Of a stretch of 64,000 nucleotides of DNA, positions 5,001 to 34,300 are shown in pieces (position 1 is the stretch's first letter; the number at the start of each line of letters is the position of its first letter). The DNA lies in contig QPGO01000036.1 of assembly GCA_008632985.1 (NCBI GenBank), positions 458,182 to 522,181 of the forward strand, written 5' to 3'. The DNA comes from Psammoneis japonica. Its lineage: Eukaryota. The notes beneath the pieces were generated by a model. It searched no databases, was not told the DNA's origin, and worked only from the letters and a program-made list of their open reading frames with translations. Position numbers and translations under genes: made by a program.

Positions 5001-5884
5001 CTTTGTGCACTTTTTTGCACTCACATGGTCATGGCTGCACTCACAATGCCATTTGTGTCTCCATGTGGTGCTCATGTCAACAGAAGAGATCTCTGGAAAA
5101 ATCATGAGAATGTTGTTCACTGAGCTGTGCAACAGGAAGAGCAAACGCAATGCTGTTGCAGCTCAAGGGCAAAGCAAGCAGCCATGACCCACACCCAAAC
5201 TTGCTGGCTCAAGCAGTGACATCTCAAGCAGTGCAGCACCTCCCAACTGCTGGCCAATGGTCAGCTGCTCTCTGGAGAGGCAACGGGTGGCATTGCATCT
5301 TCCTGGGACTGGAGTTTGTTCTTCTGCTTGCATGGCACCACACCACAGCCAGAGAGAGAGAGGAGGTGGGATCCTTGCTCACAACCAACAAAGCTCTCTC
5401 CCACTCTGCTGTGTTTTGTGGGGATGGCATTGCAAAATGTCCATTGTCAAATGGTTTCTGTCCATGCATGGCACATTGTTTGCTGTGGGGCTTTTTAGTT
5501 TTGTCATGACAACACCGGGTCTTAAAGGGAACAGCATGGCCCCTTGGTGGGAATGACTCTTTGTGACCAAAACTTGGCACATCACAAAAGTGAACAACAA
5601 CTGGAGCTCCAAAACTGTGTGAACCCACTTGCTGGCTTGAACCCAAGCATGACTTCAAAACAAGGGCACAAGGCTCATTGCAGACATTGCTCACTCAACA
5701 CATTTCCCGCAAAGCTGAAAGAAAATCTTTGGTGTGTTGGTGCACCATGTGCATCACTGCTCTCCTGCATTCCGTCATTGTCTGCTTCATCTTCATTGCA
5801 TTCACAGCAACGGGTGATGCACACCTTCTCCATCATGACAATGCTGAGGAGAACCAACAAATCATCGTGAAGCTCATGTGGGAA

Positions 5885-6037
5885 AAGAACAGTGCCGACC
5901 CTCTTCCCAGGTGCAGCAGATTGTGCCTGTCAGACAAAGACTGCCAAGGAGCCCTTGTCTGTTTCAAGTGCAAGCATTTCAGCAAAGTTCCTGGATGCCA
6001 AGGAAAAGGAAAGATGAGTGTTGGATGCTGCATTTGA
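5885..6037 (+). pseudogene. Decayed frustulin-type acidic cysteine-rich (acr-like) domain
   Basis: PLPRCSRLCLSDKDCQGALVCFKCKHFSKVPGCQGKGKMSVGCC follows the diatom pattern LgxCxGDCDxDxDCxxxLxCFqRxxxxxVPGCxGxGxxxxDYC. Confidence 0.6.
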
Positions 6038-8519: not shown

Positions 8520-9740
8520 TCATTGTCACATGGAGTGAAGCAATGATCAAGAGATTGGGAATTTGGGCACCATCGCCAAGGGTTTCATTGCTGTGATTGC
8601 AACAGAGCTTGAAGAAGACATTCTTGTTGATGTCAAAACAGAACTTCAAAGCACCTTTGGAGCCCTTGCCAAAACTCGATTGCATTCTTTCCTTTGCATG
8701 CTGCGCTGCCGATGTCAACTCACCAGGCCCCAGTTGCTCCCCATTGACCAAACACACTCAAATCAAGAATGGCAGGCATCTGCTGCAAGAGCTCATGGCA
8801 GAAGCGGATGGTGGATTCATTCAGATTGATGCAAGCATGGACACAGATCACAGTCATGTCAACATCACAGCCAGATCCAACTTCAGTGGCAAGAGTTGCT
8901 GCACACTCATCAGGTTGGAATGCTTGTGCACACAGCACATGTTGGATGCTGTCTTCCCTGTGATGCTGCTGGGATTTTCATGATGGATCAAATTTTAACC
9001 TGTGTCAGTGCTGAAACTCGCTCTGTGCCCCAGAGCAGCTTTCAGCTTGATCTGATGCAGGCAGCTTCCATTGTTTGTGGGAGCCCCCCATCGTCACTTG
9101 TGCTCATTGAGGAATTTGGAAAACGAGCACACGGACTCTCTGGAGTGCTGCTGGCTGTTCAACACTCATTCATCTTGTTTTGCTGGCATGCTTGCACCAC
9201 TGAAGGCACCAGCCCGTCATTTGGTGTTGCTGTTTTGTCAGCGGAAAGCAAAGAAGCTTTCTCGCATGAAATGCAAAGTCATTTGCATGACCCATTTCCT
9301 GGAAGTCTTCAGCTTGGGATTGCTTTCGGATGGTGCAGATGGAGGTTGTGCACGCCAATGATGGTGCACATTCCAGAGTCAAAGAGCAAGGATGAAGAAG
9401 AAAACTTTGGTGCAGCGCCCTTGTTCAAACCAGAGCAGGGTGTTGCCAAGTCGTTGGCAGGGCTTGTGTGTGCCAAGAGAGCTGGCGCGCAAACAAGAAA
9501 GTCCCAAATGGAGGAAAGGGAATCCTTGTTGCTGCCAAAGAAGATGGGTGCACCATGCAACTGCTCAAAGAAAGCATGAGTCTCCCAGAGCTAAAGCCAG
9601 AGGTGAAGGACGTCTTGTGCATGTTTCTGGGAGTCAACTCATTGGCAAATGCCACAGATGAACAGCTCAAGGTGCTGGGGTGTAAACTGGCTGCTGTTTC
9701 CATCCTGCAGCAGGGGCGCTGCAGTTGGGGGCAGCTTGCA
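8520..9740 (+). pseudogene. MSH5: MutS homolog 5 (MSH5) pseudogene, ATPase half, multiple frameshifts
   Basis: Across frames: LDCILSFACCAAD, IKNGRHLLQEL, Walker A remnant NFSGKSCC, QVGMLVHTAHVGCCLPCDAA, SVPQSSFQLDL, SLVLIEEFGK..GTSP, CMTHFLEVF, PLFKPEQGVAKS.AGLVCAKRAG. Confidence 0.85.
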
Positions 9741-12700
9741 CAGACAACAAAGAGACAAGACATGTGGGGTGATCAATCCAAGCATTTCTGCTTTTTCTTT
9801 TTTTTGGCACTTCTTGTGTTTCTTGCCTTCAGTCCTTCATTTCTTGGGCAGGAGTTTTGATGCAAGGGAAAGTGTGTTTTGCAGCAAAGGGACCAGGCAA
9901 AGCTGGCAGATGAAAATGATGTGGCCTGGCATTGCAATTGCAGAGGCATCTCTGTCCTTCCAAGGTGATCCTTTTGCACACAGCATCAAGCACAAAATGG
10001 TCTTGGAACTCTCTCAATGGCACACCAAGTGATGATGCAGACTTGCACTGCAAATTGAAAAGTGGCTGATGCTTCCACCAATGATGACATTCTGTTGCTT
10101 TGGTTCAGTGCCTGGAGCAGACAACAGATGATGCACAGCTTGTGGATTGATCGCTGCAACACACAACACACAAAAGTGCCATGTGCAAGGAGCACAAGCT
10201 TCAACACCACAGAGGGCAAGAAAAGCTGGCACTCCAACAAATGTTGGGAAAGGAAGTGGGTGCTGTTGCAGCCGCGCATGCTGGAGAATGCTGGAGAATG
10301 AAAGAAAGAAGAAAACTGGGGTGCAAGCCAATGGAACCACACCTTGGCAATTGTGTGTCTGTGACAAGATGATTGGATTTCATGAACACATGCATTCGTG
10401 CACAACTTTGGCCCATGCATTGCCGCCGCAGTGACACTCTCCAGTGCATCTTTCTGCAGCACCATGCAAGAGCCAATGTGGTGACACCATGAGCCCATGA
10501 CACCACAAGCCCAATGGCAAACACAGAATTCCCCACAAGCAGAGCTGCAAAGTGCATGCAGGTGGCGACAAGCATTTGACTTGAGTGGCAGTCTTGTCTC
10601 CTGCGTGAACGTTGTCTTGATGTGGATGGCGGGTGCAAAACGACAGCTGCTTGCTTGCCTCCTCTTTGCTCTTGTTTTCATTTTTGATGTTTTTTCAGGA
10701 TTTCCACACACACACCAATGCTTCCTTTTTCGAATTTTTGCAAGATCTCATTGTCCCTTTTGTCTCAAGTGAGGACCATGACAAAAGACATCAGATTGCT
10801 TGGCCACTCTGCCAGATTCTTTTGCAAGCTGCTTGCTTTTTCCATGAGGCATGTCCACCCATTTGTTTTTGTTGTGGATTTGCCACGCAGAGAGTTCATT
10901 GGCTGTAAGAGCCAATCACAGAAACAACTGCTCCTCCATTAATGCACCTCCGCATGAGCAGAAGGACTGCACTGCCAGCATGTGGGTGCACAGCTTGAAG
11001 CTGTCCAGCACCCAAAGACGTGCCTGATGTGCACAGGATTGGAGTGTGCAAAATTTTTGGTCATGATTTGGCGGGACTTGTGGGCATGAATCGAGTCCGC
11101 CAACTTGTGTGATGCCCGCGAGCCCCGCCCACTCAGCCGACTTGTGACACAAATGGTGTGCAGGCTGTGGGCAAGATTTTTTGTTTCAAAATGCATTGTG
11201 CATTGTTTGTGCAGTGGAGGAGTGTTGCAATCACCCTCAAGACATTGAGCGGGCTCTCAGTGCCAATGGCAAGATAAAGACAGTGCAAAAATGGCCTGTC
11301 ACAACCCTGGATGACAATCTGCCCTTGTTGCCACCCGGTGAAGAAGGGTTCTGGACATGCAATCCAGCGTGCTTTCCTTGTCCCTTTTCACTTTCATTTC
11401 ATGTCATGCCTCCAGACAATGCCCATGAAATGTGGCCACAATCAAACATCCAAGACTTCTCAACAGCAAGATCTGTTTCTTGCAAGCCAAACCAATGCAC
11501 TGGCAAGATTTGCCAATGCTTTCTGAACAAGGGTTTTCACATTTCAGTGCTGACCTGCACCTCTCTTGCATTGTCAGCTTGATGGTCAACTTGCACCCAG
11601 CAAACAGCTGCTGGCTTCATGCATGTCTTTGCTTTTGTGACAAAGTGTCGTGTGTCAACATCACAGAGTGAAGCCAAGAGAAGCTCAATGGCATGCTGTG
11701 AGAATCAACAATGGCTGCACGCTCTTGCTGCAGTCATGCAAGGACTCGATGCAGCAACTGACTGATTGCAGCTCTGAGCAGATGATGAAGGATGCCAATC
11801 TCAGCCTTTGATTTGATTTGTTCACAAACCACAGAAATGTGAACTGTCCTGCTGCTTTGCAGAGGTTTCATGTGAATTGGCAAATCTCATTGTCATCAAA
11901 CTTGAACTGATCCAGAATGGCAGATTCAAAATTGCGCTCTTCGAGAGTCTGCTGACGTTGCAACTTTCAATGCACTCAATCCTCTGGTCGAGGAGTGAGC
12001 AGGGTGTCTTCATTGAATGCCCATGTTGGAGTTGTTTTGGCAGCTGCCAATTGACTCATGAGGGCTTGTGTTCTGCATCAAGCTTGCACAGACATGCCTG
12101 TGAAATCTCCTGATGTGTTCAATGCCGTTGTCTGCACAATTGTTGTCAGCCATCCCTTGGCTTGAGTGTCAACTTTAAAGACATGTTGCATGCTTTTTCA
12201 AAAGAACAACAAGATTCAATGAGATGTCTTCTGCCCTGGAACGTGCCCTCAAAATCACCAAAGCTTGAGCATGTCAGGAACAATCAACTTGCTTGATCAG
12301 CTGTGTCAGCATCCATCCAATTTGAAGCGGCTGAGTCAGGCTCTGTGTTCAAAAGATCATCCTTTGCCACAGCTTGGGCAGTTGGCCAACCAATGCTTCA
12401 GATTGCAAAGGGGAAAACGCAGCTTGCAGATTCAATCTTGGACAAAAGAAGTCACTCAACAAATCATCAGGCAGAAGGAGTGTTGCACAAACATGGTGCA
12501 CTGGAAGCAGATGCCTGCCACTGAAGGAGGAACTTCCCATGTGGAAAAACTTTCTTTGCTTCACAACAAGTGCACACACTGCCTCAAGAATCTGTTGCGC
12601 TTCCTTTTCCTCTTCTATAAAGACTTCCTGACCTTCACATCCTGTGGCAACTGCAGGATGTTTGTCGGCAGTTGGTGGATGTTGCTTGCACCTGACTCAA

Positions 12701-13129
12701 AGCAGTCTGGGATGGCAGTGCTTGCTGGTTGCTCCAAGCAGCTGTGGCGTGCATTGGCGCTGAATCTCAGATGACCTGTTGTTGCTCATTTTCTTTTCCT
12801 TTTTCTTTTGCTTCTGCTGCTCTTGTCCAAATGACACTGCGTTGAGTTTGCACCACACAGCATTGTTGCCTCATTCACCACCAGCATGTTGAAGAACAGA
12901 GATGGCAACTGAGGTGCAAGCCTGCAGTGGTGGACTTGAATTCATTGGCCATTGCAACATCATGCAATGGTCAACATGCAGACAAAAAAGACTCACACCC
13001 AGATGTGGTGTGAGCAGCAAAACAGCTGGGGGGTGCTTTTGGGCTTGTCAGGAGCTGTGCGGAAAGAGAGTCTGCCAACACAGAAGCAGACAGACATTTC
13101 AAAATGCAGCAATTGTGCTGTGGGAAGTT

Positions 13130-13560
13130 GAAACTCAGAATTCTGCTGTGCATGGAGTGCCTTGGGAGGGTTCTTGCTTTGCACAGGTTGCGCGCATCAT
13201 CGATCAGTGATGGCACTGTCATGGAGTGCATGTGAACAAGTGGACACTGTCTTGTCACAGGAGGTGGAGACGGCAAGGTTCATGCTTTTTTGCTGACAGA
13301 TCTTGTCGACTTCTTGGAAACTCCAGATGGGACGACGATTGCCCCACTTCGCACCTGGTTGCATCACCACTTGTGGCAACTGCGCTCAAGGTGTTGCCCG
13401 GGGACAGAATGGCAACAGCCTCAGATGACTGCAAGGTTTCAATCATTGAACTCTTTTCAGATGCAGCAGCTTTGACTGTTCAAATGACACACTCATTGCG
13501 TTTGTTAGAACACCCGGCTGGTCGCCAGTTTGCCAGTGCGGGTCAAGGAAGCATGTGCAC
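13130..13560 (+). pseudogene. Decayed WD40-repeat gene fragment
   Basis: VATALKVLPGDRMATASDDCKVSII resembles a WD40 blade; only one convincing repeat. Confidence 0.4.
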
Positions 13561-14614
13561 AATTATCTTGAGGTTTGCGCAGTGCATCAATCATCACAGA
13601 TGGGCATCATTGTGAAACAACCAAGTGTTGACAAAACAAACGAGGACCAGGTTTTCAGGAATGACAACAACTCACGTGTCAACAGCGCAAATCAGAGCTG
13701 CACGGACATGGCAGATTGACAACACCAATCAAGAGGTGTTGCGTTTGGCTGCAGGCGGAACTTGACGAAGCCAATCAGGGTGGAAAAAAGTCAACAACAA
13801 GCTTGTGCCAAAGTTGAACAAAGAGTCTTCTTGTGGCAACAATGCACCACAAAAATGAAAATTGTTCAATTGTGATCAGAGTGCAGACTGCTTCTGCAGA
13901 CCCTTCGAGACATCTTGCGGAGGTTTGATCCCTTGTTTTGCAAACCATTGCACACTTTTTTGGACATGATCAAGTTGCAACTCCACTTGAAATTGAGGAT
14001 GCAATGGCAAAAAGGTTCAACTTGGTTCCCACTTTGCACGAGAGTGCTTTCCACATGTTGACAAATTCAGCCAGCAGTCAGGGACACAACAACATGCATC
14101 AAATGTGGAGATCCAGGTCAGTTAGAAAAAGACTGACATCAGCTTGATCCTGATTGGAAGAAGAGAGGCAAAGCAATTGTCCATGGAGGAAAACCCTGTT
14201 TGTTGAAGACTCACCGTGAAATCAAGAACCCTCTGTTGATCTCCACACTCATGCACGTCCTCATCAGCCATTGACACTCAGGTCTCAAGTGTGGCATGGT
14301 CAAGCAAAGTAAAGTGGCAGCACAATGTTGAACACTTGTTGTTGGACTTCGAACCGCAGATGGCATCACCAATCCAGCAAAGGCAAATGACAAAGCAGGG
14401 TGCAGTGACAAAAGAAGAATTGCCACCACCACTCTCTGGTCCAAGCATCTTTGATTGTTTTGCTTTTTGAATGCAACAGGATGTCCCAGTCCCAGTTCAT
14501 CATGTCAAGGACCACTGCAGGCACCAAACTAATTAGATTGAAACAGTCGTGCAAGTCTCTGTGAAAGTCAGTGCCCTGATTGGGAACGCCGGGAAGCACT
14601 GGAATGCACGCAAA

Positions 14615-16133: not shown

Positions 16134-16823
16134 TCACATGGTCTGCTCGTAAGCGCGATCGACAGCCATGCAGTCATGGATCAACCAGCAGTTCTGGCGA
16201 GGAGGTCTCCGTTCTCGTTGAAGCGTCCATAGAAAGGTCCGTTCCTTTCCTTTTAGCGGAATAACGTGAACCAAGCAGGTTTGCATAGCTCCGCGGGTAC
16301 GAGTCCCAGGAATGAGCTTTCCCATTTTCTTAATCTTCCAGTAGTGACAATCCACCATGCCACCAAAGACGGGGCCGGTGGCTTTCTTGATAAAGGTCTC
16401 AAGGTCCGATCCTAAACCGGCGCGGCAGAGGTCCGTAGCAAAGTTATAGCAAACCTCGATTCCGGCATTGTTGAATATCTCGTTGTTCCGTTGCAGACCA
16501 TTCATACACATGGTCACGACCTCTTTGGCCTCGTACTCGGAGTGTGGGCTTGGAATGTACTCTTCGTCGATACCCAGGGTTGTTGTTATGGGAATCTGAC
16601 TTACAGATAGAGACGTTGAGGACTTTGTACTAGTTCCAATGCCGTTGGAGTGAGAAATCGGAGGAGCAGTCGTGATTGGGAGAGACCCAAAAGTACGGGT
16701 CGTCACAAAGGCACTCGACGACGACACTGCAAGCGTCAGTAGAAGGAGAGACCGCAAGAGGGGCGGCAGAAGGACATGGTAATAAAAAAGAAGTAATCTT
16801 GATGGGCAGATGGCAACAGCCAA
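16134..16823 (-). CDS. Conserved plastid-targeted protein of unknown function (possibly DUF4864-like)
   Basis: Signal peptide ending SSSSAF, S/T-rich transit peptide, globular domain (EVVTMCMNGLQRN..NAGIEVCYNF..RTFLWTLQRERRPPRQNCWLIH). Normal dinucleotide content. The true ATG start is not evident. Confidence 0.75.
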   Translation of the reverse strand: MAVAICPSRLLLFYYHVLLPPLLRSLLLLTLAVSSSSAFVTTRTFGSLPITTAPPISHSNGIGTSTKSSTSLSVSQIPITTTLGIDEEYIPSPHSEYEAKEVVTMCMNGLQRNNEIFNNAGIEVCYNFATDLCRAGLGSDLETFIKKATGPVFGGMVDCHYWKIKKMGKLIPGTRTRGAMQTCLVHVIPLKGKERTFLWTLQRERRPPRQNCWLIHDCMAVDRAYEQTM

Positions 16824-17109
16824 TGACTCAAAAAGTGCTCGTTGCTCGTGATGTTTTGCGTGATGGGTGATGGAATGAGAATTTTGTGTCTCGGCGGCAT
16901 TGGTTTGCGCGCAGATGTCAAAATTCCAAAATCTGTCGTTGACGTCAGCAATACTGAGACGGACTATGTAGAATCTACGTGAGCAAATTCGGTTGGCCAG
17001 ATGCGGTCGCGAATTTGTCTAAATGTTGGAATCAGTAGAAATCTACAGGAAGTTATGTACGATGACGTCATCTATTTTTGATCGCGATTTTCATGCTGCA
17101 AAACAACCG

Positions 17110-17240
17110 TGGCTATTCGCCACCAACGCTGCTGGGGGGTGCGTCCCACTATAGTTAGGAGGCGGTGATTGGTGGTGTCAGCGCTTTACTGGGGTTTCTT
17201 GCCCTCTTTAGGCTCACCAGCAACCAAGACCGCCTCCGAT
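17110..17240 (-). repeat. Split direct repeat B2 (outer copy, TpA retained)
   Basis: 131 bp, matches 17402-17532 with 5 differences. Confidence 0.95.
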
Positions 17241-17264
17241 GAGGCGGCTGGGCGGGAGAGGAGG

Positions 17265-17397
17265 GTCAAAAAGTTTGCAACTGCTGCTGCGGCCTCGGCA
17301 GGCGGCGACGAGTTGCAAAGAATGCCGTTGGCATTCAGGTCGTTCAAGGCTGCGTGCGTTGGGGGGTGGATGCGTCTGTCCTTCCCCCTGCGCTGCT
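17265..17397 (-). repeat. Split direct repeat A2 (inner copy, TpA lost)
   Basis: 133 bp, matches 23346-23478 with 6 differences. Confidence 0.95.
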
Positions 17398-17401
17398 GGG
17401 A

Positions 17402-17532
17402 TGGCTGTTCGCCACCAACGCTGCTGGGGGGTGCGTCCCACTGTAGTTGGGAGGCGGTGATTGGTGGTGTCAGCGCTTTGCTGGGGTTTCTTGCCCTCTT
17501 TGGGCTCACCAGCAACCAAGACCGCCTCCGAT
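17402..17532 (-). repeat. Split direct repeat B1 (inner copy, TpA mostly lost)
   Basis: Matches 17110-17240. Confidence 0.95.
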
Positions 17533-17611
17533 CCGCCACTCTTGGAGGGCCGAGAAGGAAAAAGGGGATGGGTCAGAAGCAGAGCTGAGGGTGGGTGAAG
17601 GCGTGGATGCG

Positions 17612-18800
17612 TCAGTTGGCGGGTGCGTCGGCTTGATTGATGATGTTTTGCGCAATGGGAGGGACATGGGACCCTGGGAGTAGCGTGAAATTGCCGCAGT
17701 TCAGGATTTTCGTAGACAGTCCTGCCATTGATGGTGATGCTTGGGCGTGAAGACATCGAAACACAGCATCGGATTTCCAGCGGCCGACGAGACGGATGAT
17801 GTCGGTGTCTGCTTTTGCGCACAGCAGGGCCATGGTGCCACCGGTGCGGAGGCTGCGGGCTGTGACATCTTTCGGCAGGAATCCCACATGTGGCAAGGCG
17901 GCAGCTGACACTTGGAGCATTTTGGTGATGGCACGGCTCGTGACATGACCCCACCGCGCACCGAGGCGTGCAGCACACAGGGGGGTGTTAGCGTTGGCGC
18001 CGTTGGAACGTGGGTGATGTACACGGCGGGCGATGGCGAGGACCGGGCATGCCTTGGAGTGCGAGCTTCTAGCATGACCTGCCGTTTCGCCGCATTCTTG
18101 ATTCTTTTGAGTGTCAAACGCAATGCCACTGTGTGTCGCGAGGAACAGCTGTTGCAGGGGGCAGGTCAAGTGGTCTAGTGCGCGTTGTCCGACGAGCAGT
18201 TTGATGTCTTTTAAGACCAAAGGGTCATTGTCTTTGCTCTTGCAATGCTCCCCCGGTCGCAGAAGGTAGAAAAGGCCGATCCAGGACATGTCGATGACAG
18301 CGTTGTCGAGGGCGGAAGATTCATCGACAAGGGCTTGTGCGTGGTGTACGATTTGGATCGGAAGAGGCTTGACGCGGTTCGGCGGCGGATCGTCTTTGGA
18401 GCACGCACTGTAAAGGCGAGCAAGGCGGGGATCCACAGTGCCGTGTGGCGTTAGCCGCGGGTCCGGGGCCCCCAGCTCGGTGAACGTCTTCGCGACGTGA
18501 AGGACTTCGTCACGAACGTGCGGAGCTGAGATTGGGTTGCCGCTGCGGCTGAGGCGTCCATCCCCAAGGCGACAGGCAAAGACTCGGAGCATCGGGATTT
18601 TGTCTTGGACACCGGTGAGGAGAGGGTCTTCGACTCCGATGTCGGATGGGAAAGGCAACCAACACTTGGCCCAGACGGTGTCCGTGGCACGGGCGCGCTC
18701 GCCAGTGACAGCTTCGCGGGCTTTTGCCGTCGCAAGGCGGAGATCAGTGAAGAAACGATGTCTGGCGGCGGGTGCAGCATTTGCCAAGGTTTCGTCTGTG
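17612..18800 (-). pseudogene. Tyrosine recombinase of the Ngaro element; catalytic Tyr replaced by Cys
   Basis: FYLLRPGEHC, ARSLRTGG, IIRLVGRWKSDAVFRCLH (expected RYLH); overlaps the RT ORF in another frame; start approximate. Confidence 0.88.
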
Positions 18801-20769
18801 GGGCAAGGCGAGCAAGCGTGGCAAGAAGGTGAGACGGCGTGGAAAATTTTCGGGAGCACGTGTCTGCGAGGAGATTGGCTGGGCCAGGAATGTAATGGAA
18901 GCGGGAGACGTGTCGGAGCTGCCATTGTTGTAGGCTCCCCGTCCGCAGCACATCGGCGCCGGGGCCGTCGGTTGTGACAGAGCCTTTTCCGCGCCGGGAA
19001 ATGGCAGGCGTGTTGTCGCAGCACGTGTGGACGGTGCGTTCCCTGACGTCGACGGCGATGCCGATGACGGCCTCTTGCAGCACTGTGCCGGCTAGCTCGA
19101 GGTCGGAGTTTGTTGTGGTTCCTGTGGGGTTGTCGTCCGAAACGACAGCGGCTTGCAGGTCTAGAGGCAGCGGAACTTGCCAGGCGGCAGGAGGGAAGTC
19201 GTCTTGAGGGCCAGGCAATGGGACGCCGCCAAACCCAGGTTTTGCTGCATCGCACGCCCCGTGGAAGTGCCCATCGGCAGCAGGGAAAAGTTCAGCCAGC
19301 CGAGTAGGACGTGAGGCAATGTCCACGGCCAAGGTGTGCAAATCTTGGAGCTGGCGGCGTGCATGGCGGCCAATGCGAGTGTGGGAATTGCCAGAGGTGG
19401 CAAGAGAGTGCTGGAGGTTTGAGAGAAGGCCCGCACCACCGGATGCCGCTAACAACATGCTGCGGACTTCGCCGAGAAGTTTGCAGCATTGTTTGTTGGA
19501 CATGCGGCGGCGAGGGATGGTGTCGGCCAGAATGTCAAGGAGGCGTTGTCGACGATGCGGCGGCAACTCGATGGTCCCGGCAAGTGTGTCTGTGAGCCAC
19601 CCCAAAATGACCTTCACTGTCGACCACGACGCGTCTCCTTTGAGAAGTTTCTTTGGGGAGATGGTTTCACGCCGCCAGTGCTCGTCAGACGGTGTGTTAG
19701 GACGGAAGACTTGATCGTTGATGTGCAAGAGGCGTCGACGTAGCTTGTTGAGACGAGCCTTCGTTCCTTGTGCGGCGCACATTTCATCATCGACGTAGAC
19801 ATCGAAGTGTTCCAGTGGCTGAGAGCCCCGTCGGGGTCTGCGACGGAGAGCGGCGGGAGGAGGAAGGCGTGATGTGCGGCTGGTCGGAGCTGCACTGGAA
19901 GGCGGCGGCACGTCGATGCGCAAGGTGTTGTCGTGAGGCGCTGGAGTGGCCGCTGCCTGTTCCAGGGGATGAACCGGAGGGTCCCAAGCTGTGGGCGAGC
20001 AGCTGTTCGCTAAGTCAATCACCATCTCGGTGCCCACACAAAAGAATGGCGGACTCTCGGTCCAGCCCATGGGCAGGACGAGAGGCAGCGCTGTCAGCGG
20101 TTCCTCCCCTGGGCCTGCTGGGAAGGCCACCCCGAGCTTGGGTGTGTCCTGGGGTCGCAGCCCAACGCGACAGAACCCATTGGAAAGGTCAAGCTTGAGC
20201 ATGTGTGCCGGGCCGTGCTTCGGGTCCGCACGGAAGATGTTGTACAAGAACCGGTCGAGAGCTCGACCGAATTGCATGGCTTCTGGAGGGGCGTGCTTAA
20301 CAGTCTCGTCGTTGAGACCGCAATGGCTGTAATCAACGATGGTGCACGGGCGGCGGTCGCGTTGCGGCACCACGCCCATCGGTGAGACACGCAGGTGGGG
20401 GAGCTTGCAGGCTTCGCGGTGCGGCAGGACTGTCCAGTGTCGTTTCTGGATCATGTCCGCCACATCCGATTCGAGGAAGCCCAGACACTCGTGAGTGGAT
20501 GGATGGCTCCCGCGGTCGGTCGCCATCCGGACCCGGTGAGGGGACCAGTCTTCCGTTGAAAACTGGACCGGTGCTCCGTCGTCACGGAGTTTAGAAAGTA
20601 ACTCGGCAGCTGGGTGGGGCAGCTGCCGAACATTCTCGGCCAGACACGGCTCCCTGCGCAGGTGTGCAACGAACTGGCTCCAGCCTAAAGTTTGTAAGAG
20701 TTTGACATGGTCCTCTGCTAACTTGCCTAGTTCGTTGCTGCGTGGACACTGCTGGTGCGGATCTGGCAA
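18451..20769 (-). CDS. Reverse transcriptase / RNase H of the Ngaro element (open but heavily substituted)
   Basis: LRVSPMGVVPQRDRRPCTIVDYS, KLDLSNGFCRV, LPMGWTESPPFFC, VYVDD, CDAAKPGFGG, NSDLELAG, CDNTPA, YIPGPANLLADTCSR. Confidence 0.9.
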   Translation of the reverse strand: MPDPHQQCPRSNELGKLAEDHVKLLQTLGWSQFVAHLRREPCLAENVRQLPHPAAELLSKLRDDGAPVQFSTEDWSPHRVRMATDRGSHPSTHECLGFLESDVADMIQKRHWTVLPHREACKLPHLRVSPMGVVPQRDRRPCTIVDYSHCGLNDETVKHAPPEAMQFGRALDRFLYNIFRADPKHGPAHMLKLDLSNGFCRVGLRPQDTPKLGVAFPAGPGEEPLTALPLVLPMGWTESPPFFCVGTEMVIDLANSCSPTAWDPPVHPLEQAAATPAPHDNTLRIDVPPPSSAAPTSRTSRLPPPAALRRRPRRGSQPLEHFDVYVDDEMCAAQGTKARLNKLRRRLLHINDQVFRPNTPSDEHWRRETISPKKLLKGDASWSTVKVILGWLTDTLAGTIELPPHRRQRLLDILADTIPRRRMSNKQCCKLLGEVRSMLLAASGGAGLLSNLQHSLATSGNSHTRIGRHARRQLQDLHTLAVDIASRPTRLAELFPAADGHFHGACDAAKPGFGGVPLPGPQDDFPPAAWQVPLPLDLQAAVVSDDNPTGTTTNSDLELAGTVLQEAVIGIAVDVRERTVHTCCDNTPAISRRGKGSVTTDGPGADVLRTGSLQQWQLRHVSRFHYIPGPANLLADTCSRKFSTPSHLLATLARLAPQTKPWQMLHPPPDIVSSLISALRRQKPAKLSLASAPVPRTPSGPSVGCLSHPTSESKTLSSPVSKTKSRCSESLPVALGMDASAAAATQSQLRTFVTKSFTSRRRSPSWGPRTRG

Positions 20770-20820
20770 GTGGGCAGAGGAGGGCTGCAGGCCAGCTTTA
20801 GGGCTGACCGGCCCCCGTCC

Positions 20821-23312
20821 TCAGGTGGAGGCCGCCGGTGCCGGCGCGGGTGCCGGAGCTGGGGCGCCACCTTCTTGGGGATTGGACACGTGGTCCCGGA
20901 TGAACGCGCTCATGGCCGTCCTCTCTCGTGGTGAGAGGTTCCGGTGCATGTTGCTGCGCTCACAGTTGGCAAAGCACGCTCCTTTCAGGTGATGGGAAAG
21001 GCACACTTCACACGCGGTGCCACTTGAATCCGTGGTTCGGGGTGCGAAACGTCGGACTGTAGCCAGGCGGATCCCGGCTTGTGCAAAGGCCGTCAGCCAG
21101 GACCGCACCGGGTTGGGATTCGTGACGGCCGCGCCCGGGTCGCGACGTCCCCGCAGTGGCGGCTGCCGCGGAAGGGGTGCCACTGTTGCTGGCGCTGGTC
21201 GAGCTCGCCTGGGAATTGGTTGTCTGCTCTGGTTGGCCAAGCAAATGGCGTGGCAACTGTGCCAGCAAGGAGAATTGTCCGTGCAGCACCTTGCATGCCA
21301 CAGCAGTGTAGTCGGGCACCCGGGGCACACCACCTTGCGTGAGCCTGCGCAGGTAGACTCCCATGAGCATCTGCACCTTGCGACAGATGCGGGGAAGTAC
21401 GTTCCCCTCAGCCAGGAGTGCTCCCGATTGTTCGAGCAGGTCGACCATGTCTCGCCAATCTTCCAAGCAGAACTGCCGGAACGCCACAGCATGGGGGTGA
21501 TTCGATCCTTGGATGACGTCCAATGCCAGACTGGTGGCTTGAAGCATGCTTCCGCAATGGCAAGTGGACGTGGGAAGAGGTGTGTCCTTGGTGCGGAACT
21601 CCTCCTGTTCCGCAACGGCAGGCATCAAGTTGCCGGCCAACGCGAGGTCGCAGCGTTCGGCCCGGACTTGCACAGTGGAGCCTTGTCCAGCCAAAAAGAA
21701 GCCGCACGTGAATGGGGAGACGCCGGCGGTCAAATCGTTCACTTGGTGCACGTGAGGTGCTGCCTTCCCTTGCAACACCATCTCGCACAACTCCTTGGAG
21801 ACTGTGGGCACTGTGCGGGACGCCGCGTCAGGCTCTTGAGCGCGCGCTTCCAAGGCGCGAGCAAAACACAGGCGCCGCTCGGCTTTGGCACTGTTGGCCC
21901 AGGCGTGGTACAGCGCGGGCAAAGCCGCATCGTCCGGTGCGCTCGAAAGCAACAGCCACACGGGCGCAGTCTGCGGGAAGGCTTCCGTCGGAGTTTTGGG
22001 GGCGGCGGCTGCGGCCGCGGCTGCGGAACGTGTTGCTTCTGTGCGTGCTGCATCGGCGCGGACTGTGTTGGCAAAAGCCAGGACCCGGTCGGTGTTGTCT
22101 GCGGCCGTTGCATCCAGGGCGGGAAGGTCCTGTAACAACGTGCGCCAGCGATGCTCCTGTGGACGGGCGTCCACCGCGAGTGGTGGCAAGGCAGTGGCAC
22201 GATCACCCATGCACTGAACCGGATCTGGATTCGCCGCTGTGTTGGTGGTGAGTGCCGCACGCAACCAATCGATGAGGGGACTCAAGTCCCCCGCGCGTCC
22301 GTCGTTTTTGGATTGCTCCCGCGAGTTCCCGCCAGGCCTGCAGAGGAGTGAGATCCCGGCTCAGCACGAGATGCAGACAGGCATGGGGCACCTGCATGAG
22401 TCGGCGGACGTAGATCGTGTCGGTGTCCGGGGCGCCATCGGTCTGCGGAGGTGTTAAATCCTCTTCATCAACCAGAGTGCCTTCTAGGGCGGCCATGTTG
22501 GCCACCGCAGGTGCCACTTGTGGACCCACGGTTTCAAACGGAGTGTTGGGCAACTTGAGGATGGACGCGTTCCAGCCCTGGGTGGGACTCCGTGTGACAT
22601 TGGGCCCGTAGAATTCCACGTGCGAGCTCCGTAGTACGAGAATTTAATCAATGGATACATTCATCTTCAACATCAAATAAACGGCCAAGTTTGTGGTGCA
22701 ATTATGCCTCTCACCACTCGACGTTTTTGCAATTGCACCTGCCCTGCGCGATTCTTAAGACAGTGTAGAATCGTGCTGTAACAAAAAATGTCAAAAGTTT
22801 TTGGACGGATCGCTCAACAAGTGCACCGTAAAATGACACAAAATGTCAAAAAATCACGTAGAATTCTACGTGCGCGACATACGACGAGATTCAAAAAACT
22901 GTCGATGTCACAGTTCAGCAGTGCGAGGTCCCACCTAGACCTGGAACACGTCGATGGTAATGAAGTTATCCGGTGGCACGTCTCCTTGAAAACAGAACAC
23001 ACGACCGTCCCACGGCGAGGTCTCCACCGGGTCTCTTATGTGCACCGAGGGCCGGTGGACGCAGGTGGTCCGGCACCCCGTGCCTTGGCGCACTGGCACC
23101 AAAAAGGCCTTGGGTGCCACGTCGCTCGAGTCGATGGTGTGCTCGAGTAGCGTAGCAGCCGGCTCGGGAGCAGCGACGGTGGTGTCGTATCGACGGAATA
23201 AATTCGCGTGCTCCCCTCCCAAGTGATCGCCTTGGGTCATCCACTTGTCGTGGTGTGTTTTTGGGGGTGCCGGGGGCGCTCCACCGGCGGCCACAGGAGG
23301 GATGGCAGCCAT
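20821..23312 (-). pseudogene. Gag-like ORF of the Ngaro element, frameshifted and interrupted by a MITE
   Basis: MAAIPPVAAGG... start; pieces in several frames; C-terminal CLSHHLKGACFANCERSNMH zinc finger; removing the MITE restores FITI-LKLP in frame. Confidence 0.78.
22564..22952. mobile_element. 389-bp MITE, copy 1, nested in Ngaro gag; 4-bp TSD GATG
   Basis: Imperfect TIRs GACG(C/T)GTTCCAG..GGTGGGAC; GATG at 22560-22563 and 22953-22956; homologous to 52001-52389. Confidence 0.9.
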
Positions 23313-23345
23313 CAAGAGATAAGGTTGGCGTATGTCGCTCCCTTT

Positions 23346-23478
23346 GTCAAAAAGTTTACAACTACTACTACGGCCTCGGTAGGCGGCGACGAGTTGCAAA
23401 GAATGCCATTGGCATTCAGGTCGTTCAAGGCTGCGTGCGTTGGGGGGTGGATGCGTCTGTCCTTCCCCCTGCGCTGCT
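23346..23478 (-). repeat. Split direct repeat A1 (outer copy, TpA retained)
   Basis: Matches 17265-17397. Confidence 0.95.
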
Positions 23479-23675
23479 AAAATTACAGTATTGGTCCGTC
23501 GTCCATCCGACCATCCGTCGCGAGTCTTGGAACTTCAACTTGCCGCCAACCGCACATCACACGCGTCACATTATCATCACACCATGATGGTATGAGAACG
23601 CGAAGGCAAGCAAGCACCCTGCCATCGATTGTCAACCCTGAAATCCTTCTCAGCAGCAACAACAATAGCATCATC

Positions 23676-24403
23676 ATGATTATGCGCAGAGCGTGCTACC
23701 TACTGTTATTGCTTAGTCCAACCACAGCGTTTGTGAATGGCCGCTCTTCCACGACGACACGCGCAACGTCCGCAACGTTCTTATCATCTACAAGCACAGA
23801 AACAACCGACGAATTGTTGAAACCAAAGTACGAAATTGACCACTGGCAACACGAATTGGTCATGGCTTTGATATTCATCGAATGGCGCCTCTCGAAGAAG
23901 CTGGACAGCCCGTTGTGATTGGTGGTGTCGTGATTGATCACAAGAACCAGAAATGGACGGATGTAAAAGGAAAGTACGTGGAAAAGGGGGGTATTTACGA
24001 GACACAATTGGGTGTTGTCGCTCATTCGGATGGAGATGTTATTTACCATTCGGTCGTTGATGCAATTTTTGGAGCACTCACGTTACCGGATATTGGACAA
24101 GTCTTTCAAGACTCGGATCCGCGATGGAAGGGGTGTGATTCTTCCAAATTCATGACTCATGCCTACGATACCATGACGTCCTATGGATATCAAATTGGCA
24201 ATATCGATGTCACGCTCATTCTGGAGCGCCCAAAGGTGGCAGGATTCAAACCAGCCATGAAGGAGAATATCATTAACTTGTTGCACACCACACCGGGACG
24301 AGTCAACATCAAGGCACGCACGCATGAACAAATGGACAGCGTGGGAGAGTTGCGATCTCTCAGTTGTCACGTCGTATTGACACTAGAACGAATCAAGGAC
24401 TAA
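23676..24403 (+). CDS. ispF: 2-C-methyl-D-erythritol 2,4-cyclodiphosphate synthase, plastid-targeted; apparent 1-nt frameshift at about 23840
   Basis: Signal peptide ...LSPTTAF; RIGHGFDIH, AHSDGDVIYHSVVDAIFGALTLPDIG, GNIDVTLILERPK, VNIKARTHE. Confidence 0.93.
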
Positions 24404-28312: not shown

Positions 28313-31300
28313 TCAGACGAGACCGTCCTTGGCATCAAACGTTGGTAGTTCAATTTTCTCATAGTGTTCCCCTAATCCACTACTTCCAGTTGAGCTGTGA
28401 TTCATTACTCCATTTGCATTCCTTGTAAACGAGTTCCCTTTTACTCGCTCAACTAAAGCGACTCGAGGAGCATGTTCTAGACCTGATCTGTCGGTATCCA
28501 GAACGCCCAATTCGTTGGTGACTAGTGACGTCGTCTCGGACTCTGCCTTCTGAAGTCGTTGCTTCCGATAGCGCTTGAAAACAAACACACCTAGTGCTAC
28601 CGCCACGAGACTTCCAATCACTGCGCCAGCTACAACTCCTGCAGAGGCGCCGCCACCGCCACTGCTAGAACCGCTACCCATGCCAGCCGATCCATCACAC
28701 GCGCTGCCGCTGTCCGATGTCGTACCGACAAGAGTGCAATCGACGCCCATACCACTGTAGGCTTGCGCTAGTGCATCAAACACTGCGGCGGCATTACGAC
28801 TGTCTCTGTCAGTCGTCAAGTCCATCGCCTTCTCAAGGACAGCCGCTGCATCGCGATTCGCGTCCTCAACAAGTGGCAGAATAGATCGCGAAAATATGTA
28901 ACCTTCCGCGACGTCTCCGTCTCTGCTGAACAGATTGAAATTTTCATTGGCCATTGCATAACGCAGAGTGGACTGGATCAATGGAACAAGCAAGAGTGAT
29001 TCAATATTTTCAATGCCTTTCTCGAGATTCTCACAACTCTTTGCAGAGAGCTCTGCCCGTCCCGCGTACAGGAGTTCAACCAGACGTTCATTGACTTCCG
29101 CGGTACGAGGTTCCCGTTGGCATGTACCAAACTGAGTGCATCTCTTCTTTGCGAGTCCATAATGCAACTGTCCCTGTTCGGAGCCACCATCGAGAGTCCC
29201 TTCCATTGACCCAATCAAAATGGCCGCTGCTTTGTCCCAAGCATTGACTGCTAGGCTGTTCGTTTCAACGTTGCTTGAAAGACAATGGGAGAGAGATTCG
29301 TAAAATGCCGACAAGGCAGACATGTAAACCACCATATATTGACATGACTTTACAACCACCTCCGTTCGTTGTTCGGGAGACATGGTAGAGTCGGTTTCAA
29401 ACCCCTTCTGAACCATAGCGTCCGCGTATTTATCGTCATTGAAGTACCGTTCAAAGGATTTGAAACTTGGCACTTGCAACCGATCTGCAGATATCGATAG
29501 GTCAAACAAGGATACGGTTGCTTCTCCGTTGCTTTCCTCAACCACCACATGCTTGCCATAGTTGTACAGATCCTCGGCGGCATCGTATGCTTCCATTTGC
29601 ATTAGAATGTCAAGCTCACGGATATCTTGGTCAATTTTTGCGTACTAACAACAGTGACAGAAGAAGTTAGCCAAGACCCAGCAAACACAAGCACAACGTC
29701 AAAAGCGAACTTACCTGCAGCACATTTGTTTCGGGTCGGTAACCAGCAAGAGGAGCTAAATCGCCTGGATCTTGGCAAGGGTACGAGTCGTCGGAAACAT
29801 ATATTCCAATATCAGCGCATTTGAGATTGAATCCAGGCAACGTCGTATAAATAGCGTCCATCAGTGCTTCCAGATCCACCGCGTTGAAAGGCTGCAAGAT
29901 CAGCCTGTCGGATAAAAATTCGTAGGTTTCGGGGTTTGTTGCCGAAACTAATGGGAGAAACGATTGCGCATATAGCTTGACTCTGTCATGGTCATTGAGT
30001 TTCAGGTTGTACACGAGCCCTTGGATCAAGGGTACAATCATCTGGGGAATGATCTTGTTGACGATTTGAACCAGTCGGGGGAACGTCTTGGGATCGTCAG
30101 AGCACGAGTTCGGAGCGGTCAGCTCCAACTTAGCTTGATTCAAGTACTTCAAAATGTTTGTGTTTGCAGCTGCCTGACCATCCACCTCGACGTCAAACAG
30201 TTCGCCGTATTTCTCTGTTAGAGCGTACATGAGATGCCCGGCTTGCGACTTGCCCGTCTGCTGCCCGTCTCCAATCCAATATGCCGCAACCTCGTCGATG
30301 GAATGAATTCCATCAGCGTCAGCAATGTTCTTTCGTCTGCATTGATCCAACGTCTGATAAAGCTCATGCACAATGTACATCCATAGATTCAGAATGACTA
30401 CAGCTTCGCTCGCCAACGTCTTTCCTGCCGCCTGAACGTCGCTGAAGGCTTCGAGAACAATCGAGTCGGCATATACACCTACATCCTTCCCAAGGTAAAG
30501 GCCCTTGGAATCTTGCAGCGCAAACTTAAAGATGTTGAAGAGCGGTTCGTGCTTCATTTCTGTTGGCGCAGAAGTGCTAAATGCACTTAAACTTCGTTGG
30601 CCGGTGCTGCATACGACAAAAGAAAATCGAACCGGCATTAAGAAACGATCTAAAATGTAAACCGTAAGCCCTTCGCAAGAAACTATACTTACACGACTCC
30701 ATTTTCGTTGAAAATCTGAGAGTTAGACCCAGTAGAATAGATGAATTTCGCAACATTAATGTTCCCGGTCAGAAGATGCTTCTCGATGTCCGCAACATCC
30801 TGTGCGATATTGGCCCTGAAATGCGAGATCAAAGTTTGAGTACGGTGAAGGGACTTTACACAGAACACGGAAGGAACGGCGCGAAAGTTACCTGTCTTGG
30901 ACATTCGTCGTGGTCGTGTACAAACCCTCCGAGAGATTGGTTGGTGTTGAAGGCGGTTTCGGCTTCGGCGGAATGCCACCACCACCACAAGCAGAAAGCT
31001 CCGGATGCATTTTCGACAATCCGATATCCGCGCAATCGATTCCCATTCCTGACAAAGCGTTCGAAAATGCAGTATATATGGCGGCGACTCCATCTTCTAC
31101 AGGCTTTTCAGTCAACTGGAATTCCATATTTCTCCCTATAGTCCGAGCACTATCGTCGTTCGCTTTATCCACAAGCGGCAGAATCGAGAAAGCCAGAACG
31201 TGTCCAGCTGCCAAAGCAGCGCTTGGCGATCCTGTCTCTAGGCCTTCATTGAGACCTGCGTAGTCTAATGTGCCTTGGATCATTGGAATGGGCATAACTG

Positions 31301-34300
31301 GCAATATTTTCTCAGTGATCAAAGCCAGCATGTTTGCGCAGTCGCCTTGATCCAACATATTTTTCCCGTCCGTGAACGAGTCAATCAGTCTTTCGTTGAC
31401 TGCAGCACTGCCAGAGCTTTCACAGGTGGAAAAAGCATCGCACATCTCTGCTCCTAATGCAAACATAAGTTGGCCACCTCCATTCGCGGAACCTCCTTTA
31501 TCTTCACCTTCAATTGACCCAACAAACAGTGCCACAGCAGCATCCCAGGCTACTTCGCCCGAATCAGCAACCCCTCCTTCGCACTGGTCAACCGCAACAA
31601 ACAATCGCTGCAAGACAGCCATGTATGAAACTATTGTTTGAATCGTTCCAACCACAAGCTCGGTAGCCTGTACTCTTGAAGCTCCTTCGAATGCCCCAAC
31701 TGAGGTGTCAAATCCATCCATTATCATTTGGTCTGCGTAGTCGTCAGAGTCTCCAAAGAAATGCGAGAACAACGGATACTCTGTCTTGACTGCAGCCCTA
31801 CCTGGATCATTAGCCAGACTCTGGATGCTAAGGAGGGTCCCACCTGGCTTGCTGTTGTACCCGTTCATATAGTAGTCCACTGCAGCATCGTAGGCTAGAG
31901 TGTCCATGAATATATTTATTTGGAGCAAGTCTAGATCAATTCGGGAGTACTGGGGTAGAAAGAGACCAAATGCGTTAGTCCTGAAACGTTAAAAGCAGGA
32001 TTTCGTACTTAGGTACTACTCACCTCAGACACATCGACATTTGGGGTATATCCGGCGATCTTCTTTGGAGTTTCAGTGTCTTCGCAAAGAAAATTAAATG
32101 GGGTGGCATAAGAGCCGTCGCTTTCCTTTGGAAGCTGTACGTCATCACACGATAGTCGAAGGCATCCCAAAAGCGGCTTCAGATTGCGAAAGACGTCATC
32201 AATCTTGTCAGAATCAAAGCTAGCATAATCCTTGTCAATCAGCGCATCCTTCAGAAAAGAAAACGCAGCTGGATCGCAAGCCGCCATTTGAGGAACAAGG
32301 GCAACAGAGTAGAGCTTCACAAGGTTGCCATTTGTCCCTCCGGCTTTTAGTTGATACAGAAGCTCCTCCAAAAACGGAATCGTCATCTTTGGAAGAATTT
32401 CAGCGACGAGCAACCGAAGCTCCAAGAAAGTATCGGAGGTTTCGGAACACGTCTTCATCAGAGCATTGGCTTTGTTGAACATGTCAATCAAATCGTTGTT
32501 CACTGGTACTTCAGAGTTAAATGTTCCAAAGCGTCTTGCCGACTTTTCCGCGAACGAGTACATCAGCCATCCAGCATCGGTTCCTTCCTCTTGATTCTCA
32601 CCAATCCATAGGGCGACGGCATTGTCAATGCGTAACTCGTCCTGGATTCCCTTTTTGCAATCCCTAACACTTTGGTAAAGACTGTTCGCAATCATCATCC
32701 AAACATTCAACACTACAGCAGCCTTTGCAGCAATATCAACAAGTTCCTCATCCAGTGCTGCCCTCACAGTGATGTCAGCATACGTCGAATCTTGGATTAA
32801 AGATCTTTGTCCCTCTGAGAATTCCTCTTGATCCTTGAGGGCAAACTTGAAGATATTAAACATCGGGTCGTCAAACATGATATCATCTGCCCCTACGCTG
32901 AAATCCTCGAGCGTCAAGATACCAGGCCTATTGAAAGGAGACAAAGAAAGAACAATGTGACTGTGAGAAAGGGAGAGTGAAAAGTGTAGGTCGAACAGAA
33001 GGCTTGTGTGTATCACGTACTCTCCGTCAGCGTCAACCACGGCATTTTTCCCCTGAGACGCAATCCGAAAAGAAGAAGAGGTTAGACTGAACGCATAAAC
33101 AAACAATGATTAAATAGTAACAGAACATCTCACTTCAGAGTAGATCTTTAAAGCATCCTCGGGGCTAGTTGCAATCATGTCACGAATGTCAAGGGCTATC
33201 TTGGCTCTGCAATGATAGGGGAACGGAACATGCGAAGAAGAAGTTAGAGACACGCACTTTCACTAACCGCAAAAGTTGGTCGTTACGAGACTAGACTGCT
33301 CTTACAGTGCAATCTCCGGCGAACTGAAAGAGTATCTCCCAAAACCCAGTATTGTGTCCCCAGATGGAGACGGTGACGGACTGCCACCGTTTGGGGTGCT
33401 ATGGTCGCAAACGTTGCTATTTGCATAGTCTGTATATATTCCAAGAACGTCGCAGTCGACATTTAGCCCTCCCCCAATAGCCGTACGAAAGCCATCCAAA
33501 ATCTCGGAGATCTTCGCCTCGGGAACATCGTAGAGAACGTTCGTGTTGGCATCAATAAGTGTGGCGCTTCTTTCATCAATGTCGTTGACCAGGGGGATGA
33601 TGGATTGTGCGAAAATGTGCCCGATACCCAAGGTCTCATCGCGTAAGTCGCCTGTAAGTTCGTCGTTCGCGTTCAATACGGCAAAGTGGATTGTACCTTG
33701 GATCAAGGGAACAAGAAGGTCTTGTTCTATGAAAGCCAAGGTGACGTCGAGATCTTCGCACTCGCCGTCAAGAATAGTTTCTTGTCCGTCTTCTAATGAC
33801 TGGAGGATATCAATATTCATCTTGGAATTGATGCCATTGTTAACACATGTATCGAAAACTTCACAAAAGAACTTTCCCGCATCGTAGAGTAGCATTCCGT
33901 AACCATCTTTGCTACCACCGACATCTTCTCCCTCCAACGACCCAACAAACATCGCGACAGCTTGGTCCCACTCCTTCACTGCCTCATCTTCCTTGTCATT
34001 AGTACATTTGTCATATGCCATATACATCTTTTGTAGCACCGCCATATACATGGCCATGTATTGAACGGCACCGACAGCAATTTCGGTGAGGATGGAAGGG
34101 GACAAGGCGCCATAAGGGCCCTGTCGATTCAATACGTTTTCGATCATTTTGTCAGCATACATGAAACCATTCTCTCCTTCTGCATCGAAATATCTATTGA
34201 AAGTATCCATCTGAGGAACTAAGTCACGACCCAAAAAAGTCGCAACTTCTCGCAAAGGAAGGATGCGGCCCTCGGGACGACAGCTGTAGCCGTAGTCGTA

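Follow-up and report, generated by a model that had tools for sequence, protein, structure and literature searches.

How do two copies of one sequence, carried within the same mobile element, come to differ almost exclusively at the dinucleotide TpA, with the TpA missing from the copy that lies further inside? The question is raised by a 64,000-nucleotide stretch of the genome of the pennate diatom Psammoneis japonica (assembly GCA_008632985.1, contig QPGO01000036.1, positions 458,182 to 522,181 of the forward strand), here called the window, which carries a Ngaro-type tyrosine-recombinase retrotransposon on its minus strand (window positions 17110–23482, 6373 bp). The bounds of the element follow from its repeat layout and from a 6049-nt contig of an independent public run (X1), which connects 17109 to 23483 and omits the 6373 bases between them; the insertion is thus polymorphic. 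On balance, it seems probable that TpA-to-TpG/CpA hypermutation acted on this element after insertion, over a bounded domain (~17241–22665) that leaves out 131 bp at the left end and about 900 bp at the right.

Read along the minus strand, the element has the order A1–[three open frames]–B1–A2–B2, the split direct repeats by which Ngaro elements are defined in the accounts available (PMC8547959 for Cafeteria burkhardae; PMC3783388 for fungi). The outer repeat B2 (17110–17240) pairs with the inner repeat B1 (17402–17532) over 131 nt at 96% identity, and the inner repeat A2 (17265–17397) pairs with the outer repeat A1 (23346–23478) over 133 nt at 95%, both pairs being direct and ungapped. A base-by-base comparison of these 264 bp yields five differences in the B pair and six in the A pair. 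Every one is a transition, and neither indels nor transversions occur. In the B pair, the outer copy has A and the inner copy G, each after T, at 17115/17407, 17151/17443, 17157/17449, 17188/17480 and 17210/17502. In the A pair, an inner TG faces an outer TA at 17277/23358, 17283/23364, 17286/23367 and 17289/23370, an inner CA faces an outer TA at 17299/23380, and an inner CG faces an outer CA at 17327/23408. All eleven sites have A or T in the outer copy and G or C in the inner one, and at ten of them an outer TpA stands opposite an inner TpG (nine) or CpA (one). A sequence-only reading of the window had described exactly this: five out of five TA-to-TG differences between B2 and B1, four TA/TG, one TA/CA and one CA/CG difference between A1 and A2, and a lost TpA at ten of the eleven sites. 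Its statement that the change always falls in the inner copy holds for these ten; the eleventh is of CpG type, a CpG-to-CpA change in the outer copy, and its rate is about that of the CpG changes private to the window copy.

Counted by TpA, B2 keeps six and B1 has one of the six left, while A1 keeps five and A2 has none, all five of its counterparts being TG (four) or CA (one); the outer copies together hold 11 TpA (rho 0.95) and the inner copies 1 (rho 0.11). Random A/T-to-G/C changes on the outer sequence, in which 19.5% of A/T bases lie within a TpA, would give at least ten such sites out of eleven with P = 7e-7. With the opposite direction assumed, 27.8% of G/C bases would create a TpA, and P = 2e-5. 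The placing of A/T in the outer copy at 11 of 11 sites gives p = 0.001 in a sign test. As a control, ten repeat pairs of related metagenome elements contain 83 differences, eight of them of the TA type and four in each direction; many of these pairs are possibly assembly overlaps, many terminal repeats of the relatives being overlaps of 100–127 nt. Just beyond A1 and still inside the insertion, positions 23479–23482 read AAAA on the plus strand, and the equivalent B-to-A junction (17398–17401) reads GGGA; the first base is a possible further TA/TG difference, and the other two A/G differences lie outside TpA.

The repeat pairs alone fix no direction. A conversion of CpA or TpG to TpA in the outer copies, of the kind made by repeat-induced point mutation (RIP), fits them equally well, and the sequence-only reading overclaimed in calling their direction unambiguous. 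The destruction of TpA that it proposed is upheld by evidence from outside the pairs, namely outgroup tyrosine columns, other copies of the family and the TpA-free tracts of the window. Eleven columns of the reverse-transcriptase alignment hold Tyr in at least half of 40 relatives; in these columns the window copy has His five times, Cys twice, Tyr twice, and Asp and Phe once each, with the replaced codons reading CAC (His) and TGT (Cys). One of the two Cys columns is Tyr in 40/40 relatives. Control columns are kept (Phe 7/9, Trp 10/11, His 5/5, Leu 38/42, Asn 8/8), and the Tyr content of the frame (0.51%) is below that of all 40 relatives (1.23–3.28%). The four conserved-Tyr columns of the recombinase (27 relatives) read Cys, His, Cys and Phe in the window copy, the changes including Y316C (Tyr in 27/27 relatives) and Y152H (26/27).

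Other copies of the family agree. The comparison with X1 contigs comprises 718 difference rows, of which 40 are listed, 29 of them within the element. Among these 29, a CpG in the other copies is TpG or CpA in the window copy in 15 rows, a TpA is TG or CA in seven, and the reverse of the latter occurs in one. For 26 of these 29 rows the window's state is found in no X1 contig; the remaining three, all of TpA type, lie in a ~400-bp repeat nested in the element, and there T accounts for 78%, 41% and 90% of depth. A second copy of that repeat, which lies in a TpA-free tract, has lost TpA relative to the nested copy by 8 to 1. The direction in this lineage is from TpA to TpG/CpA, by outgroups for the coding body and by seven sites against one reverse among the rows listed. 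The 78 metagenome loci related to the element were also considered as outgroups for the repeat sites themselves and set aside, as they share at most 54% protein identity with it and are too distant to polarise these sites.

A RIP-like process working from CpA to TpA in the outer copies, plus one CpG-to-CpA change, with the inner copies ancestral, would have the merit of explaining all 11 differences by a single G:C-to-A:T process in a pair that is in itself symmetric. It could also draw on two X1 contigs of other element copies, which continue from interior sequence (as far as 23311) into an A repeat that matches the TG-type inner version. Every polarised comparison in the window goes the other way, however. 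The signature of RIP, an excess of TpA in repeats from C-to-T changes at CpA, is absent: all repeat-like DNA of the window is depleted of TpA and none is enriched. Likewise, it is the inner copies whose rho TA is abnormal, the outer copies having an ordinary value; the host is a diatom and not a fungus; and the genome would need two opposed dinucleotide-specific processes. Such a reversal is very unlikely.

The loss of TpA is not confined to the inner repeats. TpA density is ~8 per 200 bp in both flanks of the element and in B2, drops to ~1.4 per 200 bp between 17241 and ~22560, and returns at 22565, where the nested repeat begins, to near-normal values that persist up to the element end. Measured as rho TA, the interior stands at 0.22, the nested repeat (22565–22966) at 0.55, the segment 22967–23345 at 0.60 and the flanks at 0.57 and 0.59; the 78 related elements range from 0.35 to 1.02, all above the interior of the window element. 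CpG in the interior is near expectation (rho ~0.93), and about 90% of susceptible TpA have been lost in the window copy compared with about 3% of CpG. The left edge of the depleted domain falls in the 24-bp spacer between A2 and B2 (17241–17264): TpA is last retained at 17209 and first lost at 17276–17277, which fixes the edge to within 67 bp. At the other side, the left end of the nested repeat carries three TA-to-CA changes (22649, 22658 and 22662), which suggest that the domain extends ~100 bp into this repeat and covers ~17241–22665. What is spared comprises the host flanks, the outermost 131 bp on the left (B2) and, at the right end, some 900 bp made up of A1, the 5′ region next to it and the greater part of the nested repeat. 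The changes fall in the inner copy because A2 and B1 sit inside the depleted domain and A1 and B2 outside it. A local motif or a short stretch of homology cannot be what aims the process, since either would be shared by the inner and outer copies, whose sequence is the same; targeting is set by position within the element.

The element is not the only DNA of the window from which TpA has vanished. Four tracts (2351–14123, 41959–44706, 47808–54453 and 57365–64000), which make up 43% of the window and alternate along it with gene-bearing DNA, contain 75 TpA in 27.4 kb (2.7/kb, the repeat copy at 52001–52391 excluded), while the gene-bearing DNA has 1068 in 27.1 kb (39.4/kb). In the tracts rho TA is 0.01–0.08, CA/TG rho is 1.8–1.95, CpG is depleted (rho 0.1–0.7), and up to 1367 bp separate successive TpA. 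Owing to the loss of TAA and TAG, open frames of at least 110 aa occur on both strands. A Pfam scan of 88 frames of the tracts gave one match at cut-off, a fragment of MutS domain V (MutS_V, 8830–9576), and beyond it a single sub-threshold match to BIRC6. Tracts almost free of TAA and TAG stops yield long false open frames in all six frames, which can mislead gene callers.

The TpA that survive in the tracts reveal a preference of the process. By context they are distributed as 46 YTAR, 27 RTAR plus YTAY and 2 RTAY, compared with 201/534/333 in host DNA (chi-square p = 3e-18), and those repeat changes that belong to the RTAR/YTAY class fall in 8/8 cases on the strand where a pyrimidine follows the A. 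From the arithmetic of survivor and repeat counts, adenines in 5′-TAY are hit about three-fold more readily. Nine of the ten TpA changes in the repeats are on the plus strand of the window, a bias that follows from the TAY preference; a single strand-coordinated event behind it was considered and set aside for that reason. Overall both strands are hit, as the sense CA–TG skew of the element (0.147) is like that of its relatives (0.139 ± 0.078) and the tracts have none.

Strand is the point on which an alternative timing depends, namely that the single-stranded antisense complementary DNA (cDNA) was deaminated at TpA during retrotransposition and the ends were then restored from unedited template. 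The nine A-to-G changes on the plus strand are changes on the antisense, first cDNA strand; interior RTAR sites of the sense strand are all lost; and DIRS-1, according to PMC7192593, yields abundant linear single-stranded cDNA and has its ends restored from an internal region. The TAY context accounts for the strand bias of the ten changes without such a step, and sense-strand hits exist: Tyr-to-Cys at residues 112 and 217 of the reverse transcriptase and 100 and 316 of the recombinase, and T-to-C at 17299. Nor does an overall skew equal to that of the relatives, or the lack of strand skew in tracts that include DNA with the MutS fragment and no retroelement signature, agree with cDNA editing, and ends restored from edited cDNA would themselves carry edits. 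Editing restricted strictly to cDNA was discarded in view of the sense-strand hits and the missing overall skew, and editing at retrotransposition in general is improbable.

The changes likely arose in place, after insertion. The two repeat pairs, presumably identical when the element inserted, show a non-TA divergence of 1 in 264 bp; at 17168/17460 the two B copies have A in common, whereas G stands in all 14 other contigs that cover 17460; and the insertion is polymorphic. The two other copies with a TG-type outer A repeat indicate that the contrast between inner and outer copies is not fixed in the family. On these grounds the sequence-only reading was probably right to place the changes after insertion, although this follows by inference rather than from direct observation.

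It is also conceivable that the inner/outer differences were already present in the parent element and were copied faithfully, the depletion having built up over generations of the lineage. The identity of Ngaro split repeats at insertion is, after all, a supposition. Faithful copying does not sit well with a single non-TA difference and no indels or transversions in 264 bp, though family copies differ by 1–15%, with the A that both B copies share and all 14 other contigs at that site lack, or with the TG-type outer A of the two other copies. A Tyr-to-Cys change at an invariant column of the reverse transcriptase (40/40), and another at the recombinase RYLH motif (27/27), would be unexpected in an active master, and the model for DIRS elements, as far as it is set out in PMC7192593, restores element ends from the internal region. 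Inheritance from the parent is therefore unlikely to account for the pattern.

Several observations nevertheless weigh against a change in place. None of the 11 repeat sites is polarised directly, no second full copy of the family having been read, and none of the 40 listed X1 rows falls at the 22 repeat positions; X1 contigs were placed on whichever repeat copy they fitted best, which hides differences between inner and outer copies. Among the rows listed, four interior TA losses are absent from all other copies, compared with ten in the 264 bp of the repeat comparison; so few private losses favour inheritance, and can be reconciled with a process acting after insertion only on the assumption of parallel losses at the same sites in other copies. 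Across the interior (17533–22564), the surviving sense-strand TpA comprise 17 YTAY, Tyr codons among them, and 0 RTAR, where the 78 relatives have 68:32 (p = 0.003). This asymmetry is what purifying selection would leave, and it could reflect either long-term selection on Tyr codons in an active lineage, i.e. inherited depletion, or a strand bias towards antisense adenines. The spared zones are unequal, ~900 bp on the right and 131 bp on the left, without explanation. Finally, no record states on which platform the assembly or run X1 was sequenced.

The last point bears on whether the pattern is real, given that a base modification in transposon bodies might lead a sequencer or polisher to call TpA as TpG or CpA, and the TpA-free tracts are known from the assembly alone. 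For the element, contigs of the independent run match it, 551 at ≥99% identity and 1179 at 95–99%, and at individual sites some of the copies in X1 contigs read TA and others TG/CA. Residual TpA obey a graded context rule, and TpA loss is accompanied by CpG decay. An artefact of this kind is thus exceedingly improbable.

The element that underwent these changes is a Ngaro-type retrotransposon of the DIRS order. Its three main frames lie on the minus strand. The first (21011–22360) is gag-like by position alone and has no family match. The second (18454–20820, 789 aa) is a reverse transcriptase with a YVDD motif, which has 614 relatives at E ≤ 0.001 (best identity 57%); Pfam RVT_1 is recognised in 14 of the 41 members of the alignment, the window's own frame not among them, and the alignment profile weakly matches the HIV-1 reverse transcriptase (E = 0.003). 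The third (17615–19291) contains the tyrosine recombinase. Its AlphaFold model, built from an alignment of 28 sequences, has a predicted local distance difference test (pLDDT) score of 84 and a predicted template modelling score (pTM) of 0.67, and the best Foldseek matches of this model are Cre, Xer and phage integrases (E = 1.8e-4, probability 1.00), albeit with TM scores of only 0.34–0.44. Pfam Phage_integrase matches one of the 28 recombinase-frame members, and a search of PDB sequences with the recombinase profile returned nothing relevant, only chance P450 matches. The Tyr of the recombinase RYLH motif, which to judge from its position and conservation (27/27 relatives) is presumably the catalytic nucleophile, is Cys in the window copy (codon TGT, 17753–17755). 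An autonomous copy needs this tyrosine, and the window copy would in that case not be autonomous.

Pfam gave no match in the element's own five frames. A DNA N-6-adenine methyltransferase (Dam-type) was found neither in these nor in the 41 pol-frame and 28 recombinase-frame members, and a Pfam scan, made without fold comparison, found no RNase H in the window reverse-transcriptase frame or its relatives. Absence of the methyltransferase separates Ngaro from DIRS1-like elements. In its split repeats, its size of ~6 kb, its GC-richness relative to the host, and its set of gag-like, reverse-transcriptase and tyrosine-recombinase frames without a methyltransferase, the element resembles the Ngaro elements as described in PMC8547959 and PMC3783388. 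It differs from them in the Cys at the conserved recombinase tyrosine, in holding a nested repeat and in a reverse-transcriptase frame that falls below the Pfam threshold. The Ngaro literature that was found contains nothing on a pattern of TpA loss.

The family is multi-copy in X1, where summed depth over the element is 166–1745 per bin compared with 59 in the flanks. The window itself contains no second Ngaro copy, as a blastn search with the element against the remaining window sequence recovered the nested ~400-bp repeat alone. This repeat is very abundant (summed depth in X1 up to 2x10^5, where single-copy DNA has 59), and other Ngaro copies in X1 skip 22565–22966, i.e. lack it. Its second copy in the window (52001–52391, minus strand) is 80% identical to the nested one. 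Palindromic GTAGAATTCTAC-like motifs are found in the repeat and again immediately to the left of the element (16965–17060). In the flanks, the X1 empty-site allele differs from the window by seven letters and 12 gap positions in 610 bp on the left (16500–17109) and by one letter and one gap in 618 bp on the right (23483–24100); run X2, from the same sample as X1, has yet another left-flank variant.

The gene-bearing DNA encodes, in long uninterrupted frames, a subtilase, an RNA methyltransferase, a Fea1-like protein, histidine phosphatases and COG6. The last is 46–49% identical to its named relatives, which are from Bacillariaceae, Cylindrotheca, Pseudo-nitzschia and Seminavis, the best matches without a name being at 54%; the COG6 comparison thus marks the host as a pennate diatom and not Bigelowiella. 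Five successive long frames on the minus strand (28316–35467; 443, 351, 366, 366 and 721 aa) are possibly a tandem gene family, and one of them has a weak match to Fea1 (low-iron-inducible periplasmic protein).

Hypermutation in place would have proceeded as follows. The diatom genome would harbour a process that turns TpA into TpG or CpA (A:T to G:C) in mobile or foreign DNA, the enzymatic step being most simply adenine deamination. A recent Ngaro insertion, with split repeats that were alike and rich in TpA, would then have been hit as integrated DNA across a sharply bounded domain, from ~17241 to ~22665. The process would have removed 10 of the 11 TpA of A2 and B1, most of the susceptible TpA of the coding body, and the codon of the presumed catalytic tyrosine of the recombinase. 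It would be aimed by position within the element, as a chromatin, methylation or transcription domain might do.

Whether diatoms in general possess such a genome defence, one that would deaminate 5′-TAY adenines in silenced mobile DNA some 30 times faster per site than CpG decay and be aimed by a chromatin or transcription domain with an edge sharp to within 67 bp, is evenly balanced. If they do, and if it is common to stramenopiles and rhizarians, it would be an ancient defence of the stramenopile–alveolate–rhizarian (SAR) supergroup, RIP-like but its mirror image, and would account for large TpA-free, stop-codon-poor tracts in algal genomes. The duplicated ends of the element amount to a natural experiment in which the same sequence meets a different fate according to position, with local motif and short homology thereby eliminated as the targeting signal. 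The domain edges are measurable and can be compared with methylation, histone marks, small RNAs and transcript ends, and the 5′-TAY preference is a testable property for candidate deaminases.

Among known systems, CpG decay, in which deamination of 5-methylcytosine in methylated transposons yields TpG and CpA, is recognisable in the window as the 15 changes private to the window copy among the rows listed, and as the eleventh repeat difference. It cannot, however, make the ten TpA differences, and the CpG rho of the element (0.93) contrasts with its TpA rho (0.22). One metagenome relative (L072) offers a case analogous in form: its terminal repeats (1–329 and 6078–6406) differ at 24 sites, at 17 of which the first copy has CpG and the second TpG or CpA, so that CpG decay is one-sided within this repeat pair. 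APOBEC3 and ADAR of animals act on cDNA or RNA and leave strand-specific changes that are fixed at insertion, ADAR favouring a 5′ U. The present pattern shares with them a deaminase-type hypermutation of retroelements, and the 5′ U of ADAR corresponds to the T before the changed A. Unlike theirs, it affects both strands overall and extends to DNA without a retroelement signature.

RIP in fungi converts CpA/TpG into TpA and makes DNA AT-rich. Like the process described here, it is a transition hypermutation specific for a dinucleotide, inactivates mobile DNA and is recognisable by a dinucleotide signature in tracts with sharp bounds, but the change here, TpA into CpA/TpG, is its mirror image. 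Moreover, copies of the same sequence located 25 bp to 6 kb apart have met opposite fates, so that short duplication alone is no trigger.

The closest parallel is the chlorarachniophyte Bigelowiella natans, a rhizarian, whose mutation-accumulation lines show A:T-to-G:C hypermutation of integrated viral DNA exclusively at TpA (Mettrop et al., bioRxiv 10.64898/2026.01.13.699255). According to this preprint, 231 of 302 mutations lie in two integrated viral regions, where all GC-biased ones are at TpA. It maps 124 TpA-depleted clusters, enriched for CpA plus TpG and for reverse-transcriptase and DDE domains, and proposes an ADAT2-like deaminase. It is the sole precedent found in the literature searched, in which no report of TpA hypermutation in diatoms was found; as presented there, TpA-destroying defence is thus known from one rhizarian alga and viral inserts, with no known targeting rule, and neither retrotransposons nor diatoms nor an influence of the 3′ neighbour come up in the preprint's main text.

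The two systems agree in that the changes are almost exclusively A-to-G or T-to-C at TpA, giving TpG or CpA, and are confined to bounded regions of foreign DNA. In the window, the restriction to TpA is seen in 10/11 repeat differences, in the replacement of Tyr by His or Cys and in the rho values of the tracts; the A:T-to-G:C direction holds for the coding body and for the listed sites (7 vs 1), and would by extension apply to the ten repeat sites; and the boundedness is seen in the rho TA of the element body relative to both flanks (0.22 vs 0.57 and 0.59). The systems differ in host, here a diatom and thus a stramenopile, and in target, here a tyrosine-recombinase retrotransposon and unannotated tracts. 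Mutation was watched in lines in Bigelowiella and is inferred from sequence in the diatom, where the depletion is far deeper (rho 0.01–0.08, compared with 0.45 in the nucleocytoplasmic large DNA virus region of Bigelowiella) and is accompanied by CpG loss. The window would extend TpA-directed defence to a retrotransposon and to diatoms, which are major phytoplankton with genetic tools, and what it adds to the Bigelowiella case is a new host lineage, a retrotransposon target, a control that separates position from sequence, a sharp edge and a preference for TAY.

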